Assembly: GCA_015233405.1 (NCBI GenBank)
Contig: JADFXT010000007.1
Location: 64,390 to 128,389, forward strand
Length of the DNA: 64,000 nt
From: Candidatus Omnitrophota bacterium
GTDB taxonomy: Bacteria > Omnitrophota > Gorgyraeia > Zapsychrales > Zapsychraceae
Direction: 5' to 3'
Positions 4,144-58,100 of this stretch are shown here, piece by piece. The position numbers were made by a program, and so were the translations under genes. Each line of letters begins with the position of its first letter. The first letter of the stretch is position 1. The notes under the pieces were generated by a model, which saw only the letters and a list, made by a program, of their open reading frames with translations, was not told the DNA's origin and ran no database searches.

Positions 4144-4229
4144 TGTCATTCCCGCGTAGGCGGGAATCCAGAAAGATTGCTTTATCGCTGAACCCTGGAT
4201 CCCCGCCTAAAAATTGCGGGGATGACAAA
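4144..4229. repeat. Palindromic dispersed repeat, locus 1 (two inverted half-elements)
   Basis: 'TGTCATTCCCGCGTAGGCGGGAATCCAG' (4144-4171) and inverted 'CTGGATCCCCGCCTAAAAATTGCGGGGATGACAAA' (4195-4229), between queD and queC. Confidence 0.85.
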
Positions 4230-6862: not shown

Positions 6863-6941
6863 TGTCATCCCCGAATGCATCTGTCGGGGATCTAGAAGGT
6901 TTGAAAACATGGATTCCCGACAGAAAATTTCGGGAATGACA
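6863..6941. repeat. Palindromic dispersed repeat, locus 3
   Basis: 'TGTCATCCCCGAATGCATCTGTCGGGGATCTAG' plus inverted 'GGATTCCCGACAGAAAATTTCGGGAATGACA'. Confidence 0.8.
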
Positions 6942-6993
6942 GCCAAGAGTCCAAATTTCTACGGAAATGACATAATGTGAGGAAATTACGGAT

Positions 6994-11469: not shown

Positions 11470-11542
11470 TTCTGTTGACGGGATAAATCGGCCCCGCACT
11501 TGTTTTTCTAAAAAAAGTAATGGAAACAAGTACAGGTGCCGC
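11470..11542 (+). repeat. Partial 5' duplicate of the tRNA-Arg leader and acceptor strand, folded as a hairpin
   Basis: 'GGATAAATCGGCCCCGCA' (11481-11498) mirrors the true 'GGTAAATCGGCCCCGTA' (11565-11581). It is followed by ACTTGTTT..AAACAAGT and GGTGCC, which pair back to it. Confidence 0.5.
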
Positions 11543-11572
11543 TTCTTTCTGGAAAAGATTTAGTGGTAAATC

Positions 11573-11646
11573 GGCCCCGTAGCTCAGTTGGATAGAGCAA
11601 CAGCCTTCTAAGCTGTGGGTCGCCCGTTCGACTCGGGCCGGGGTCG
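11573..11646 (+). tRNA. tRNA-Arg (anticodon TCT), CCA not encoded
   Basis: Manual cloverleaf: GGCCCCG/CGGGGTC acceptor, GCTC/GAGC D-stem, ACAGC-CTTCTAA-GCTGT anticodon arm, GCCCG-TTCGACT-CGGGC T-arm. Confidence 0.9.
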
Positions 11647-11714
11647 TTTTTTCGTTTTCTCGCCCTGAGATGGGGTAGTGCTCAGGGTCGTTTTTTCGTT
11701 TTCTCGCCCTGAGA
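11641..11714 (+). terminator. Intrinsic terminator embedded in a perfect 30-nt direct repeat
   Basis: 'GGGTCGTTTTTTCGTTTTCTCGCCCTGAGA' occurs at 11641-11670 and 11685-11714. The CCCTGAG/CTCAGGG hairpin is followed by a T-run. The first copy includes the last 6 nt of tRNA-Arg. Confidence 0.6.
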
Positions 11715-11759: not shown

Positions 11760-12746
11760 ATGAAGCTATTTCAAAAAATTCTCCTTGGTATTTTTGTTTT
11801 TTTTCTCTTTCTTTTTCTTGCAGTCTCTGTTTATCTTCGCTTTCAAGGCCAGCAAGTCATTATCAAAACGCTTACCCAATCTTTAAAACAAGATGTCAAA
11901 ATTCGCAGCCTCGCCTATAGTTTTCCTTTTGGGCTTAAGGCTAGCGATGTGTCGGTGGGTGATTTTTTTAATTGTCAGACGATCAAAGCTCAAATAAATT
12001 TGCTGGCACCTTTTAACGGACAAATTCATCTCGCCTATGTTTTTATAGACCGGCCTTTTCTGCGGGTTGATAAACAACAAGTGTCTATTCGTTCAATGAA
12101 AAATTTCTCGACGCAAACGGCAACAGAAGCAAATCCGGTCCAGCGCATTGAAAAGCAAAAAGAACCTTCATCCGTACAAAATTTTTTTCCGGCTGTTTCT
12201 ATCAATTGGCTTTTTATCCGGCAGGGAACCGTGGAGTATAGGGATAAGGACGACTCGCGATCGACGCTGTGGCTTGATAAAGTGGATTTAAGGGTTAAAT
12301 CGTTTGAGCTACCTTTGGAGTCCAACAAGGTTCCCTATACGTTTTCCGCAATGTTTCTAAAGGAGAAATCATTTTTTTCGAATACCAAGATTGAGAGCGC
12401 GGGATGGATCGATGTCGTGAAGAAAGACATGGACAGCAAGGTCAAGGTGATCGATTCAACGGGAAAGATTGGGCTCAATGCGCATTTGGTTTCCAAAGAT
12501 GATCAGATGAATGTTCAAGGCGATGTGTCGGCGGGGAAATTTTTGTTAGGATTGCAAAATGCAGGACAGGGGCCGACATCTTCTTTAGGAGGGTTGGTTG
12601 CCGGGGCGTTATCTAATTTTGGCGTCGAGGTTTTAGCAAAATTTTCTTTTGCGACCCGGATGGATGATTTTGAGATCCGAAATATCAATTTAGAAGGAAC
12701 GATCAAAACGCAAGAATCCGGCGTCAAATCGCTCCAAAAGAAATGA
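11760..12746 (+). CDS. Membrane-anchored hypothetical protein, AsmA/DUF748-like N-terminus
   Basis: N-terminal TM, then 'VIIKTLTQSLKQDVKIRSLAYSFPFGLKASDV', similar in pattern to the N-terminus of the 1105-aa protein. No other recognisable motif. Confidence 0.3.
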   Translation: MKLFQKILLGIFVFFLFLFLAVSVYLRFQGQQVIIKTLTQSLKQDVKIRSLAYSFPFGLKASDVSVGDFFNCQTIKAQINLLAPFNGQIHLAYVFIDRPFLRVDKQQVSIRSMKNFSTQTATEANPVQRIEKQKEPSSVQNFFPAVSINWLFIRQGTVEYRDKDDSRSTLWLDKVDLRVKSFELPLESNKVPYTFSAMFLKEKSFFSNTKIESAGWIDVVKKDMDSKVKVIDSTGKIGLNAHLVSKDDQMNVQGDVSAGKFLLGLQNAGQGPTSSLGGLVAGALSNFGVEVLAKFSFATRMDDFEIRNINLEGTIKTQESGVKSLQKK

Positions 12747-12837
12747 TTGTCGAAATGCGGTTTTATGATAAAATACGTTCCACTTGAAATTTGGTAATTT
12801 GATTTTTGGGCGATTCTGATGCTTTGGTCTTGACGGT

Positions 12838-13095
12838 CTCTGGAAAACATTTTAGTGGTAACATGGTGGGTGTGCTTAGAAACAAAAGCAGCACTACCTA
12901 CCATTTCTTTCTAGGAAATATTAAGTGGTAACATGGTGGGTGCCCATGACTTCTCTGGGAAAGGCTTCAAAGGAAGTCAGGACAACCGCACCATTTTTTT
13001 CTGGAAAAGATTTAGTGGTAACATGGTGGGTGTCCTTAAGGGCAAAAGCAGGACTACCAACCAGGTCTTTCTGGAAAATATTTTAGTGGTAACAT
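12838..13095 (+). repeat. Array of three promoter-box plus tRNA-His-5'-strand units, each forming its own hairpin
   Basis: The identical 19-mer 'AGTGGTAACATGGTGGGTG' occurs at 12854, 12924, 13014 and 13085; the fourth copy runs into the real tRNA. Hairpins at 12865-12902, 12935-12992 and 13025-13062. Confidence 0.8.
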
Positions 13096-13170
13096 GGTGG
13101 GTGTAGCTCAGTTGGTTAGAGTACAAGAATGTGGCTCTTGTGGTCGCGGGTTCGAATCCCGTCACCCACC
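13096..13170 (+). tRNA. tRNA-His (anticodon GTG) with genomically encoded G-1
   Basis: G-1 opposite C73. GTGGGTG/CACCCAC acceptor, CAAGA-ATGTGGC-TCTTG anticodon arm, GCGGG-TTCGAAT-CCCGT T-arm. No CCA encoded. Confidence 0.9.
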
Positions 13171-13176
13171 CTTTAT

Positions 13177-13221
13177 AACCCTTTGTAAGGTTTAATAATC
13201 CTTGCAAGGGGTTTTGTTTTT
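13177..13221 (+). terminator. Hairpin plus T-run downstream of tRNA-His
   Basis: AACCCTTTGTAAGG - TTTAATAAT - CCTTGCAAGGGGTT, followed by TTTTGTTTTT. Confidence 0.6.
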
Positions 13222-13222
13222 A

Positions 13223-13250
13223 TTGACAAATTTTCGGTTCATGTTATATT
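13223..13250 (+). promoter_or_regulatory. Promoter of brnT/brnA module 1
   Basis: 'TTGACA' - 16 nt - 'TATATT'. The ATG lies only ~12 nt after the -10 (near-leaderless). Confidence 0.55.
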
Positions 13251-13262
13251 TACATTGTACAT

Positions 13263-13553
13263 ATGAATGAAATTCATTTTGAATGGGATAAGCTGAAGGC
13301 GGCGGCCAATAAAAGGAAGCATGGTGTTTCTTTTGAAGAGGCGCAGACTGTCTTTTATGATGACAATGCCGTTCAATTTGATGACCCGGACCATTCAAAG
13401 AGCGAGGATAGATTTATTATGGTGGGCATGAGTTATAAATTACGGGTGCTGGTGGTTTCTCATTGTGAGAGGCATGAAGATGTTATTAGGATTATTTCAG
13501 CCAGAAAAGCTATCCGTCATGAGACGAAATATTATACGGAGGGGAAAATATGA
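13263..13553 (+). CDS. brnT: BrnT-family (DUF497) type II toxin, copy 1
   Basis: 'FEWDKLKAAANKRKHGVSFEEAQTVF', 'HSKSEDRF' and 'IRIISARKA' are BrnT hallmarks. Confidence 0.8.
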   Translation: MNEIHFEWDKLKAAANKRKHGVSFEEAQTVFYDDNAVQFDDPDHSKSEDRFIMVGMSYKLRVLVVSHCERHEDVIRIISARKAIRHETKYYTEGKI

Positions 13554-13765
13554 GAGCAGAATATGATTTTTCTAAAATGAAGGGACGGCGTAATCCTTAT
13601 GCGTCACGCTTAAAAAAACCGGTGACCATTCGTTTGGGTTCGGATGTTGTGGCGTATTTTAAGAATATGGCTTCCGAGATGGATGTCCCGTATCAGAAAC
13701 TGATGAACATGTATCTAAGGGATTGCGTTTCGTCTCATCGTAAAGTCGAATGGGTTTCGCACTAA
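13550..13765 (+). CDS. brnA: BrnA-family antitoxin (RHH/CopG-like), copy 1
   Basis: 'YDFSKMKGRRNPYASRLKKPVTIRL..DVVAYFK..A.EMDVPYQKLMNMYLRD'. 4-nt ATGA overlap with brnT. Confidence 0.8.
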   Translation: MRAEYDFSKMKGRRNPYASRLKKPVTIRLGSDVVAYFKNMASEMDVPYQKLMNMYLRDCVSSHRKVEWVSH

Positions 13766-13779
13766 ACAGGGTTCTCACG

Positions 13780-13851
13780 TTTTTCTGGAGAAAATTCATA
13801 GGTAACGGGACCCCGCCAAAGGCGGTGGTAACCTTGCTCCACCCAACGACC
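13780..13851 (+). repeat. tRNA-type upstream box, then GC hairpin, then an 18-mer resembling the tRNA-His 3' strand
   Basis: 'TTTTTCTGGAGAAAATTCATAGGTAAC' is related to the box upstream of tRNA-Arg and tRNA-His. CCGCC-aaa-GGCGG hairpin. 'TTGCTCCACCCAACGACC' (13834-13851) is identical to 15481-15498. Confidence 0.6.
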
Positions 13852-13910
13852 TTTAATTAGGACGTGCTTTTAGGATAATGCAACCAGTAGAACCTCGTTT
13901 TTTTGCTTAT

Positions 13911-14714
13911 ATGAAAAAAATATTTTTGCTTTTCTTGGTTTTTATTTTTTTGTCCGAATGCTCTTATGCGGACATTGCACTGGTGCATTCTAGCTATAAG
14001 CATACAATGAGCATTACTTCAGGATCGCCTGTCACTAGTTACTTGACGACGATAGCTACCATAGACAGCGGGTCAAATCAGATGCTGGTCGTCGGGGTTT
14101 CGGCGGAAATCGCGAGGACAACTGGTACCATTACTTTCGGGACTGTTTCTTATAATGGAACTCTGATGACGCAGGTAACCACTGCATCTGTGGTCGCAAC
14201 GGGAAACGGAAGTGTTGACGGAGTGGCCCTTTACTATTTGCAAAATCCCGCTGTGGGGACAAATAATTATGTGGCCTCGACTGTTTCGGCCAGTACCGGT
14301 ATTGGAACAATTAATTCGCACAAGATCCTTGCCATAAGTTTGAGTGGGGTAAACCAAGCAGCCCCTGAAGCCAATAATTCAGCGACCAACAATAGCGCGT
14401 CTGCAAGCGTGAATTTGACCACTTTAACAAATAATGCGTGGGTCCTGGATATTGTATGCGAAGATTTATCCACCGCCACATGGACTGCCGGTGGGGGGCA
14501 GTCACCCGTGCTTGATATTGGGGGCAATCAGATGAGGGCGGCCATGTCGTATAAGCCTGTGGCTACAGCCGGAGCCACGACGATGTCTTGGGCTATATCG
14601 GGTTCTTATGGATGGGCCATTATTGCCGCTTCTTTTGCTCCTTTTGTTGCGGCGTCAAACGCATCGGTCTCCGGAGCCACATCAATGACGGGAATAACGT
14701 CGATAAGTTTTTAA
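13911..14714 (+). CDS. Hypothetical secreted protein, Thr/Ser/Ala/Gly-rich
   Basis: Signal peptide 'MKKIFLLFLVFIFLSECSYA'. No recognisable motif. The sequence looks more GC-rich than its flanks. An alternative upstream start at 13878 lacks a signal peptide. Confidence 0.5.
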   Translation: MKKIFLLFLVFIFLSECSYADIALVHSSYKHTMSITSGSPVTSYLTTIATIDSGSNQMLVVGVSAEIARTTGTITFGTVSYNGTLMTQVTTASVVATGNGSVDGVALYYLQNPAVGTNNYVASTVSASTGIGTINSHKILAISLSGVNQAAPEANNSATNNSASASVNLTTLTNNAWVLDIVCEDLSTATWTAGGGQSPVLDIGGNQMRAAMSYKPVATAGATTMSWAISGSYGWAIIAASFAPFVAASNASVSGATSMTGITSISF

Positions 14715-14744
14715 TGGAATGGTGTTTGATATTGTTAAACCGGT

Positions 14745-14790
14745 CTGCCTGCCGGACAGGCAGGTTCGAACCCTCTTCCTCCAGCGACCC
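14745..14790 (+). repeat. GC hairpin plus tRNA T-loop/3'-end-like sequence
   Basis: 'CTGCCTGCCGGACAGGCAG' hairpin, then 'GGTTCGAACCCTCTTCCTCCAGCGACCC'. The downstream sequence is homologous to that following tRNA-His. Confidence 0.5.
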
Positions 14791-14798
14791 TTGTTTAA

Positions 14799-14843
14799 TA
14801 GCCTTTTATAAGGTTTAACAATCTTATAAAAGGCTATCTTTTT
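14799..14843 (+). terminator. Hairpin plus T-run, homologous to the one after tRNA-His
   Basis: TAGCCTTTTATAAG - GTTTAACAAT - CTTATAAAAGGCTA, followed by TCTTTTT. The loop is conserved with 13191-13199 and the stem differs but still pairs. Confidence 0.6.
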
Positions 14844-14845
14844 GG

Positions 14846-14875
14846 TTGACAGATGTATATCTTGGTGATATACAT
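14846..14875 (+). promoter_or_regulatory. Promoter and palindromic operator of brnT/brnA module 2
   Basis: 'TTGACA' - 17 nt - 'TATACA'. A perfect inverted repeat ATGTATATC-ttggt-GATATACAT (14853-14875) overlaps the spacer and -10. Confidence 0.6.
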
Positions 14876-14882
14876 ATATCGT

Positions 14883-15197
14883 ATGGATATTCAGCAGATC
14901 CTCAATAGTTGCGAAGGCTTTCAATGGGACGGTGGTAATAGCCTCAAAAGTTGGCTTAAGCATCATGTTTCACAAGGAGAGGCAGAGCAGATATTCTTTA
15001 ATGACCCGCTTTTATTAGTCATGGATCCGAGGCATTCGCAGGATGAGGCGAGGTATTGGGCGTTAGGGTATACGGATGACGACAGACAGCTGTTCATTGT
15101 TTTTACGATACGTAAGAATTTGATTCGAGTTATTTCAGCTAGGAATATGAATAGGAAAGAAAAGGTGGATTATGAAAAATTTAAAACCAATTCCTAA
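14883..15197 (+). CDS. brnT: BrnT-family (DUF497) type II toxin, copy 2
   Basis: 'FQWDGGNSLKSWLKHHVSQGEAEQIF', 'HSQDEARY' and 'IRVISARNM'. The start was moved to the ATG at 14883 because the listed start at 14853 lies inside the promoter. Confidence 0.75.
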   Translation: MDIQQILNSCEGFQWDGGNSLKSWLKHHVSQGEAEQIFFNDPLLLVMDPRHSQDEARYWALGYTDDDRQLFIVFTIRKNLIRVISARNMNRKEKVDYEKFKTNS

Positions 15198-15447
15198 ATT
15201 TAAAAGTGAAAGTGATGAACGGAAATTCTGGACGACCCATGATTCGACAGAATATGTCGATTGGTCTAAGGCCAGGAAAGCCGTCTTCCCGAATTTGAAG
15301 CCGACCTGCAGGAGTATTTCATTAAGGATTCCTATGGCTATGTTGGATAAGCTTCGGGTTCTGGCCAATAAGCGGGATGTGCCGTACCAATCGCTATTAA
15401 AGACGTTTTTGGCTGACCGTTTGAAGAAGGAGTCGGTTTCTCATTAA
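15172..15447 (+). CDS. brnA: BrnA-family antitoxin, long form, copy 2
   Basis: 'IPKFKSESDERKFWTTHDSTEYVDW...FPNLKP...ISLRIP..MLDKLRVLANKRDVPYQSLLKTFL'. Confidence 0.75.
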   Translation: MKNLKPIPKFKSESDERKFWTTHDSTEYVDWSKARKAVFPNLKPTCRSISLRIPMAMLDKLRVLANKRDVPYQSLLKTFLADRLKKESVSH

Positions 15448-15452
15448 ACGGG

Positions 15453-15498
15453 CCTGCCTGCCGGACAGGCAGGTTCTAACTTGCTCCACCCAACGACC
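15453..15498 (+). repeat. GC hairpin plus a degenerate tRNA-His 3'-end-like sequence (right boundary of module 2)
   Basis: 'CCTGCCTGCCGGACAGGCAGG', then 'GGTTCTAAC' and 'TTGCTCCACCCAACGACC'. Compare the tRNA-His 3' end, 'GGTTCGAATCCCGTCACCCACC'. Confidence 0.55.
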
Positions 15499-15577
15499 CC
15501 ATTTTTTCCACAACTATTTTCCTTAATGTAAGATGGTGATCATGGCGTCGAAGATGGGGAAAGTATAATTGTTTGTT

Positions 15578-17057: not shown

Positions 17058-17216
17058 TGTCATCCCCGAATGTTTAAGCCTGCCTGACGGTAGGCAGGTC
17101 GGGGAACCACAAAACAGAGTTGTCATTCCCGCGAAGGCGGGAATCCAGTAACGTTTTTAGATTCTGGATCCCCAATCATTTCTGGATATAAAATCGAGGA
17201 AGTTGAGGATGACAAG
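17058..17216. repeat. Palindromic dispersed repeat, locus 4 (composite)
   Basis: 'TGTCATCCCCGAA..GCCTGCCTGACGGTAGGCAGG..TCGGGGAACC', 'TGTCATTCCCGCGAAGGCGGGAATCCAG' (17121-17148), and a degenerate 'CTGGATCCCC...GAGGATGACAAG'. Confidence 0.8.
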
Positions 17217-17278
17217 CATATTAAAGATTTCGGAAATGACAGGTAAACATTCGTGTTGCCTGAATTGTGAGAGTATAA

Positions 17279-23965: not shown

Positions 23966-24121
23966 CTGTCATCCCCGCAATTTTTAGGCGGGGATCCAGA
24001 AGTTTCAAAAATATGGATTCCCGACCTGTCTGCCGACAGGCAGGCAAGAGATTTCGGGAATGACAGCAAGGGCAAAGATTTCGGGAATGACAGTTGAGGG
24101 TGAAGATCCCAGGAATGACAA
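23966..24121. repeat. Palindromic dispersed repeat, locus 5 (composite, 4 half-elements)
   Basis: 'CTGTCATCCCCGCAATTTTTAGGCGGGGATCCAG', 'GGATTCCCGACCTGTCTGCCGACAGGCAGG..TTTCGGGAATGACAG', 'TTTCGGGAATGACAG' and 'CCCAGGAATGACA'. Confidence 0.8.
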
Positions 24122-40927: not shown

Positions 40928-40996
40928 TTGTCATCCCCGGCGATCCCTCATTAGCGGGATGGTAAGCGAAGGGCGAACCAAAGCGGGAATGACAGG
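40928..40996. repeat. Palindromic dispersed repeat, locus 6 (degenerate)
   Basis: 'TTGTCATCCCCGGCGATCCC...AGCGGGATGG...AGCGGGAATGACAGG'. Confidence 0.6.
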
Positions 40997-57991: not shown

Positions 57992-58100
57992 CTGTCATCC
58001 CCGCGGAAGCGGGGATCCAGGATCCGTGGAGTAAGCTCTACGGAGAGCTAAATTTTTAAAAATATTTACTGGATTCCCGCCTGCGCGGGAATGACAAAAG
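57992..58100. repeat. Palindromic dispersed repeat, locus 7
   Basis: 'CTGTCATCCCCGCGGAAGCGGGGATCCAG' (57992-58020) and inverted 'CTGGATTCCCGCCTGCGCGGGAATGACAAAAG' (58069-58100). Confidence 0.85.

Follow-up and report, generated by a model that had tools for sequence, protein, structure and literature searches.

A 64,000-nt stretch of a Candidatus Omnitrophota genome (contig JADFXT010000007.1, positions 64,390 to 128,389; hereafter, the window), whose features were judged by sequence comparison and computation, carries a 2.3 kb islet downstream of a tRNA-His gene. The islet is built of three cassettes, 0.7–0.9 kb each, every one of which is terminated by a direct repeat (DR1–DR3). The order of genes and repeats is tRNA-His, brnTA1, DR1, a secreted-protein gene, DR2, brnTA2, DR3, and a cupin gene, where each brnTA operon encodes a BrnT toxin and a BrnA antitoxin. 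We favor, with a probability of roughly 0.5, a reading in which serial site-specific recombination of Campbell type, acting at the T-loop-like core GGTTCKAAY, stacked the islet. The locus probably represents a composite islet, now decayed, beside a tRNA gene. An earlier note on this DNA had described two mini-islands; both brnTA modules are real, but the array is better described, judging from its sequence, as three cassettes and four attachment (att)-like sites, namely the T-loop of tRNA-His, DR1, DR2, and DR3.

The mosaic structure of the repeats carries this reading. DR2 and DR3 form a 56-nt direct repeat that flanks module 2 (brnTA2) and is 82% identical; its layout runs from a TTAAAC box through a GC hairpin to GGTTCKAAC, after which comes a C-rich tail with CGACC(C) at its end. 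The first 37 nt of this repeat, which run left of and through the core, match at 34 positions (92%, E = 3e-10). Because this direct repeat includes DR2, the middle gene is also closed by a repeat copy. The DR3 TTAAAC box overlaps the brnA2 stop codon, and unrelated sequence with the cupin gene promoter lies 3′ of DR3. In DR1, the insert between box and core holds a copy of a motif found upstream of tRNA genes (13780–13806; discussed below) and a GC hairpin (13810–13829). The 18-mer TTGCTCCACCCAACGACC recurs exactly at 13834 and 15481, and the true repeat is a 19-mer that begins at 13833 and 15480, with 0.03 chance matches expected in the window at up to three mismatches. Across four junctions, the similarity between arms switches at the core GGTTCKAAY. 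On the right, tRNA-His and DR2 share the tail, terminator, and -35 element, while the likeness of DR1 and DR3 ends with the 19-mer. On the left, DR2 and DR3 share the TTAAAC box and the hairpin, and DR1 has CACTAAACAGG instead. The sequences following DR1, DR3, and a related repeat in a Paceibacterota genome (L014, described below) show no significant homology to the terminator region that trails tRNA-His. Arm switching at a defined core fits reciprocal site-specific recombination. No copy of the full DR (core plus tail) exists elsewhere in the 64-kb window.

The flanks of the cassettes are conserved far better than their genes. Module-to-module identity is 63–73% in the left flank, 20–55% across the genes, and 100% over the last 19 nt, which rules out a simple ancient duplication. 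The toxins are highly diverged (35% amino acid identity between BrnT1 and BrnT2), as are the antitoxins (30% between BrnA1 and BrnA2); yet the two brnA genes are alike over their final ~15 nt (GGTTTCNCAYTAAAC), which fall within the conserved flank, despite the low identity of the proteins. The 64 nt after tRNA-His are homologous to the 64 nt after 14790, with an alignment score of 36 reached by none of 5000 shuffles. In both flanks, a hairpin and a T-run are followed by TTGACA, an extended -10 element, and a near-leaderless brnT. The hairpin loops are nearly identical (TTTAATAAT in hairpin 1 and TTTAACAA in hairpin 2), and the 14 stem pairs compared in structural register show three compensatory, three one-sided, and no disruptive changes. 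On this comparison, the predicted intrinsic terminator upstream of each brnTA is kept by compensatory changes. The earlier note thus read much of the architecture correctly: the homologous left flanks, the covarying stems around a conserved loop, the T-loop-like sequence at the start of module 2, the GC hairpin and identical 18-mer (one nucleotide short of the full repeat) at the end of both modules, and the divergence of the toxins all stand.

Distances of 12 nt (module 1) and 8 nt (module 2) separate the -10 element from the ATG, a spacing from which the brnT1 mRNA is predicted to be near-leaderless and the brnT2 mRNA leaderless. The promoter of each brnTA operon is of sigma-70 type and is overlapped by a palindrome. 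A 14-nt inverted repeat (14848–14861 and 14867–14880) overlaps the brnT2 promoter and is likely the operator of BrnA2, a putative assignment; the homologous locus L039 has a similar TTGACA with a GTATAC palindrome. Next to the DR2 hairpin, on its left, lies the 11-mer ATTGTTAAACC (14731–14741), whose reverse complement equals the hairpin 2 loop (14812–14822) exactly and has one mismatch to the hairpin 1 loop (13189–13199). By this complementarity, the TTAAAC box stands on either side of the core, in inverted orientation; the inverted boxes may serve to bind a protein or may be coincidental.

By domain content and overlapping gene order, both pairs are predicted BrnT/BrnA type II toxin–antitoxin (TA) systems. 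Both operons are toxin-first (13263–13765 and 14883–15447), and all four proteins score above their Pfam gathering thresholds (34.5 bits for PF04365). Both antitoxins fall below the cutoff of the NCBIfam equivalog NF047399 (E = 1.6e-13 for BrnA2). A BrnT1 relative with 59% identity is present in L048. Among metagenomic relatives of module 2, many are single open reading frames (ORFs) of 199–231 amino acids (aa) that join BrnT and a CopG-type antitoxin in one frame (L037, 441–1136; L038, 1647–2276; L039, 3270–3893; L118, 2501–3100), which suggests genuine toxin–antitoxin fusion proteins. The protein of the middle cassette has no family in Pfam, NCBIfam, or PADLOC. It has homologues in 1205 representatives at E ≤ 1e-3, the best 56% identical, and its uncharacterized domain of ~200 aa is widespread, also being embedded in proteins of 500–2700 aa.

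Table 1. Features of the tRNA-His islet and of neighboring and dispersed repeats in the window (RHH, ribbon–helix–helix).
Feature	Position	Strand	Description	Evidence or measure
U1–U3 and true tRNA-His leader	12837..13096	+	three tandem units	direct-repeat comparison, folding
tRNA-His(GTG)	13097..13171	+	left anchor of the array	ARAGORN; Rfam tRNA 65.4 bits; motif scan
Terminator hairpin 1	13177..13222	+	14-bp stem, loop TTTAATAAT, then T-run	-20.4 kcal/mol, z -5.4
brnT1 promoter	13223..13250	+	TTGACA, 16-nt spacer, TGtTATATT	promoter scan, 11/12 match
brnT1	13263..13553	+	toxin, 96 aa	PF04365 1e-28, 99.9 bits
brnA1	13550..13765	+	RHH antitoxin, 71 aa, 4-nt overlap with brnT1	PF12441 2.4e-8 (35 bits), PF14384 4e-8 (34 bits)
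DR1	13760..13851	+	box CACTAAACAGG(G)TTCT (13760–13775), ~50-nt insert, GGTAAC, 19-mer CTTGCTCCACCCAACGACC (13833–13851)	
Middle cassette gene	13911..14714	+	267 aa, signal peptide (278 aa with start at 13878)	
DR2	14735..14790	+	TTAAAC box, GC hairpin CTGCCTGCCGGACAGGCAGG (14745–14764), T-loop-like GGTTCGAACCC (14763–14773), tail CTCTTCCTCCAGCGACCC	
Terminator hairpin 2	14798..14845	+	18-bp stem, loop GGTTTAACAAT, then T-run	-21.2 kcal/mol, z -6.6
brnT2 promoter	14846..14880	+	TTGACA, 17-nt spacer, TGaTATACA (extended -10)	
brnT2	14883..15197	+	toxin, 104 aa	PF04365 3e-23, 82.4 bits
brnA2	15172..15447	+	CopG/RHH antitoxin, 91 aa, 26-nt overlap with brnT2	PF12441 1.4e-32, 112.7 bits
DR3	15444..15499	+	TTAAAC box, GC hairpin (15453–15473), GGTTCTAAC, 19-mer (15480–15498)	right end of the array
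TGTCATYCCCG clusters	4144–4227, 6863–6972, 17058–17241, 23967–24120, 40929–40994, 57993–58096			

The tRNA-His gene, which encodes G-1 (13096) and does not encode CCA, has its T-loop core GGTTCGAATCC at 13149–13159, and the repeats resemble it to different degrees. Tested boundary by boundary, the tRNA is intact, the T-loop repeat of DR2 (GGTTCGAACCC) matches at 10 of 11 positions, and the outermost DR3 is no more tRNA-like than chance. The motif GGTTCRAWYCC occurs four times in 64 kb, with 0.38 occurrences expected, and two of the four are real tRNAs. In DR2, 28 nt separate the T-loop-like motif from the tRNA-His terminator homologue that follows it, and the last 8 nt of the tail, CAGCGACC, match CACCCACC at six of eight aligned positions. 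DR2 is probably a partial copy of the tRNA 3′ end.

Under the favored reading, the incoming elements would have been small and related to each other, with a recombinase that was lost or is encoded elsewhere. Each element would have carried a tRNA-3′-like tail, a terminator, and brnTA beside its attachment site; with such a tail borne by the element, integration would have restored the tRNA and moved older junctions downstream. The terminator would shield the autoregulated TA promoter from read-through out of the tRNA or the upstream cassette. BrnA, an RHH protein, would repress this promoter and neutralize the BrnT RNase, so that deletions losing the TA pair would be counter-selected and the TA pairs would remain. 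The array is now probably immobile.

A number of findings weigh against serial integration. The earlier note had taken the 18-mer for a copy of the tRNA-His 3′ acceptor strand, and in the alignment test that had been named beforehand this claim failed: the best local alignment to the tRNA-His 3′ end (CACCCA, 6/6) is at chance level, its score being reached by 9% of genomic 28-mers and by 25–27% of composition-matched shuffles. The 19/19 identity of DR1 and DR3 is unlike two displaced tRNA ends decaying independently, and points to recent common origin or constraint. As the earlier note had also stated, no integrase is present; a Pfam scan detected no integrase or recombinase in 13172–15500, in the 10 kb on each side, or among 27 ORFs of the window. 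All three cassettes are smaller than 1 kb, which would call for three islands to have decayed drastically and neatly. For an empty-site comparison, all relatives are too distant: aldolase relatives with 81–86% identity (L021, L040–L047) have other upstream genes, no tRNA, and no synteny with the window, and exact-protein look-ups of the window proteins among indexed contigs gave no match. To these are added the local copies of tRNA sequences, the copy of the tRNA-upstream motif in DR1, and the dispersal of the GC hairpin, which are described next. The signature of integration into tRNA-His proposed by the earlier note survives in part, in the mosaic junctions and the tRNA-like DR2, and is lost in the 18-mer, which is at chance, and in the GC hairpin, which is dispersed.

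Local partial duplication is common at tRNA loci in this genome, as seen from copies of tRNA-Arg and from the three units (U1–U3) upstream of tRNA-His. In tRNA-Arg, the leader and first 8 nt are repeated 83 nt upstream at 13 of 13 positions (11484–11496 and 11567–11579), while the last 6 nt and a 24-nt trailer are repeated 44 nt downstream at 30 of 30 (11641–11670 and 11685–11714); these partial copies have no cargo between them. In each of U1–U3, the tRNA-upstream motif is joined by an exact copy of the 19-mer AGTGGTAACATGGTGGGTG and by a hairpin whose closing stem is acceptor-like. The 19-mer has four copies, including the one in the real tRNA-His gene, where it spans G-1 and the 5′ strand of the acceptor. 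The hairpins of U1, U2, and U3 fold at -17.2, -25.6, and -14.6 kcal/mol (z -3.8, -3.7, and -2.0), and the stem that closes them imitates the acceptor stem of tRNA-His, G-1 and C73 included. Between U1 and U3, which are 85% identical, the stem changes preserve pairing. The units have no match in Rfam and look like tRNA-His minihelices. The upstream motif itself, TTTCTGGAAAAnATTTAGTGGTAA, precedes both tRNA-Arg and tRNA-His, with a diverged copy in DR1, downstream of brnA1; in the form TCTTTCTGGAAAAnATTT(T)AGTGGTAA, it lies at 11544–11569, 13066–13093, and 13780–13806, the first two at equal distance from tRNA-Arg and tRNA-His. Possibly, it serves as a tRNA promoter or leader element specific to the lineage.

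Because relatives of the GC hairpin of DR2 and DR3 occur between genes at 17078–17099 and 24025–24044, giving four copies in the window, it belongs to a dispersed family and is not an arm specific to the islet. TGTCATYCCCG and CGGGRATGACA form a dispersed intergenic family of inverted pairs (19 matches at up to one mismatch), and two of its clusters also hold the GCCTGCCTG...CAGGCAGG hairpin of DR2 and DR3. By its form, this family is like a miniature inverted-repeat transposable element (MITE) or a repetitive extragenic palindromic (REP) sequence.

These duplications and dispersed repeats, together with the chance-level likeness of the 18-mer to the tRNA and the lack of a detected recombinase, speak for a rival account in which tRNA loci of this genome are prone to short tandem or partial duplication and the locus arose by local rearrangement, without a dedicated mobile element. 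DR2 and hairpin 2 would stem from a duplication of the tRNA-His 3′ end and its terminator; gene conversion would have homogenized the DR tails and GC hairpins, as repeats of terminator or REP type; and the brnTA operons, unrelated to each other, and the middle gene would have arrived by ordinary illegitimate or homologous recombination. We consider this account rather unlikely. It leaves unexplained why all three cassettes end in the same DR, why the arms switch exactly at the T-loop-like core, how brnA genes for proteins of 30% identity come to share their last ~15 nt, and why the DR is found in a Paceibacterota genome.

The search for the 18-mer in other genomes, which the earlier note had proposed, gave a mixed result. 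Exact scans returned 16 matches in 185,579 GTDB species genomes, 15 in JGI metagenomes, and four in IMG/VR. These counts equal the chance expectation, and all matches are single and in coding or unrelated contexts, except in one Paceibacterota lineage with a DR-like stretch; an 18-mer in the role of a widespread element was rejected on these chance-level counts. The Paceibacterota lineage (L014, L027, and L033) carries CACTAAACAGGTTCTGAATTGCTCCACCCAACGACCC, which matches the DR1 box at 11 of 11 positions and DR3 at 28 of 30. In L014 (507–542 of DATKZC010000021.1), the copy is ~36–41 nt long, non-coding, and placed between two terminators, beside a fragment of an insertion sequence (IS) transposase. 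The copy has no hairpin; within 8 kb there are neither TA genes nor a tRNA, and nothing beyond the copy is shared with the window. The match is true homology across phyla, which implies that the repeat moved between lineages. The copy is the best hint of a repeat that travels.

Homologous BrnTA loci place the conserved flanks at this locus. The TTGACA promoter and the palindrome are kept in L037–L039, L048, and L118; none of the flanks described here was found around the homologues in L037–L039, L048, and L118–L122, and no tRNA is adjacent in L037–L039, L048, and L118. Being absent around these homologues, the flanks are a property of this locus rather than of the TA family. L118 has local 15-nt repeats of its own on both sides. 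Viral sequences were scanned for a phage attachment site (attP) with the tRNA-His 3′ end and for the hairpin with the core, each with zero matches; the terminator-loop motif had 69 viral matches, none in a hairpin or T-loop context.

The near-identical lone DR in another phylum, which resembles an unoccupied or relic site, bears on a further alternative, i.e., that the units are active, non-autonomous mini-cassettes, small by nature, each comprising one gene or TA pair and a 40–90-nt DR end, for which a recombinase from another part of the genome would carry out insertion and excision, either at the tRNA-His T-loop or at DR sites. Three units of 0.7–0.9 kb, each closed by a DR, agree with this, as do DR arms conserved much better than the cargo, and there is a precedent in the recombinase-less 822-bp abkAB dif module (PMC6160057). 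We regard it as distinctly unlikely: apart from the one Paceibacterota lineage and chance matches, the 18-mer is in no other genome or metagenome scanned; the 64-kb window has no further DR copy, no site with the 11-6-11 architecture of pdif, and no convincing pair of attC R″ and R′ sites; and no candidate recombinase was seen. In its boldest form, which we hold to be similarly improbable, the DR-bounded units would be undescribed recombinase-less mini-cassettes, serially inserted at the tRNA-His T-loop in trans, with ends shared horizontally between Omnitrophota and Paceibacterota; the array would then parallel, at a tRNA anchor, integron arrays and dif modules.

The position of the DRs after the genes, 0, 20, and 0 nt from the stop codons of brnA1, the middle gene, and brnA2, respectively, could also mean that they act as RNA. 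In that case, the DRs would be tRNA-like 3′ ‘punctuation’ or terminator modules that set the 3′ ends of three transcripts, for instance by RNase P/RNase Z processing or by hairpin-dependent termination. Stable hairpins in DR2 (-16.3 kcal/mol) and DR3 (-19.7 kcal/mol) and the position of the Paceibacterota copy between two terminators are in line with such a role. We consider it very improbable, given that the DR fold z-scores, between -1.0 and -2.0, are unremarkable, that the DRs adopt no tRNA-like fold with a T-arm and acceptor helix, and that the L014 copy has no hairpin at all. An Rfam search of the window at E ≤ 10 returned three tRNAs only, with no match for the DRs, and the mosaic arms would be left unexplained.

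Returning to serial site-specific recombination, the closest known patterns, by analogy, are the successive tRNA-gene integrations of tycheposons and the accretion of cis-mobilizable elements (CIMEs). In Prochlorococcus tycheposons, successive integrations are parted only by a partial tRNA, and degenerate remnants occur as well (10.1101/2020.12.28.424599). As in tycheposons, the array has an intact tRNA at one end and blocks of cargo split by partial tRNA-like repeats; newer insertions would displace older ones outward, and remnants without an integrase occur. Unlike tycheposons, no block here has an integrase, the blocks measure only 0.7–0.9 kb, and only DR2 is demonstrably tRNA-like, the outer repeats matching each other and not the tRNA. 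CIMEs and the accretion arrays of ICE and IME families (integrative conjugative and integrative mobilizable elements, respectively) have been reviewed (PMC5704250). The array shares with CIMEs its att-type bounds, the absence of recombination genes of its own, and, on the favored reading, a tandem stacking by site-specific accretion, and mobilization by the integrase of a related element is conceivable. It differs in that its sizes are far smaller, it has no known helper element, and its att sites are putative.

Another point of comparison is the abkAB module of Acinetobacter, an 822-bp dif module that encodes PF14384 and PF04365 proteins and is flanked by pdif XerC/XerD sites; pdif comprises 28 bp, in which a 6-nt spacer separates the XerC and XerD arms of 11 nt each (PMC6160057). 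In both cases, a BrnT/BrnA-family pair forms a cassette of ~0.8 kb with short end sites and no recombinase, arrayed beside other single-gene modules. Dif modules are plasmid-borne, and their sites are usually inverse, whereas the repeats described here are chromosomal, direct, and provided with a T-loop-like core. The stretch TATTGTTAAAC (14730–14740) matches the XerD arm of E. coli dif (TTATGTTAAAT) at eight of 11 positions, and the E. coli arm may differ from that of the host. A dif module was rejected, with no XerC arm and no ATAA-N6-TTAT core beside TATTGTTAAAC.

Like the TA cassettes of integrons, the units described here are short, end in a structured repeat, and have a TA promoter of their own, and their repeats are better conserved than the cargo. 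Unlike integrons, the window has no IntI, attI, or Pc, and upstream of the array lie tRNA genes and DUF748/YhdP-type genes. The core sites of attC are R″ (RYYYAAC) and R′ (GTTRRRY), inverted and paired in the folded strand. The left boxes of the DRs (ACTAAAC, GTTAAAC, and ATTAAAC; consensus RYTAAAC) match R″ at six of seven positions; a complementary R′, GTTTAAT, follows DR2 only and is lacking at DR3 and the L014 copy. The Paceibacterota copy also differs from attC in having no hairpin. By sequence, the sites are not pdif and not convincing attC.

If serial integration is correct, the islet would be a compact example from Omnitrophota of how tRNA genes accrue layers of foreign DNA, and of addiction modules that outlive the elements that delivered them. 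The mosaic junctions mark explicit crossover points that can be tested. Mobilization of the cassettes in trans, if it occurs instead, would add tRNA T-loops to the other anchors of cassette arrays, attI/attC and dif, and the repeat shared across phyla would then mark gene flow between ultra-small groundwater lineages.

Between tRNA-Arg and the repeats upstream of tRNA-His lies a gene (11760–12746) for a protein of 328 aa with a weak DUF748 match, which has no homologue besides itself among 5.8 billion clustered proteins. The surroundings of the islet are of housekeeping type, with queuosine biosynthesis genes, RNase PH, Ham1, YhdP/DUF748-type proteins, tRNA-Pro, tRNA-Arg, and tRNA-His. Beyond the array, the cupin gene is followed by genes for an HMGL-like aldolase, a KDPG aldolase, and an SGL lactonase.

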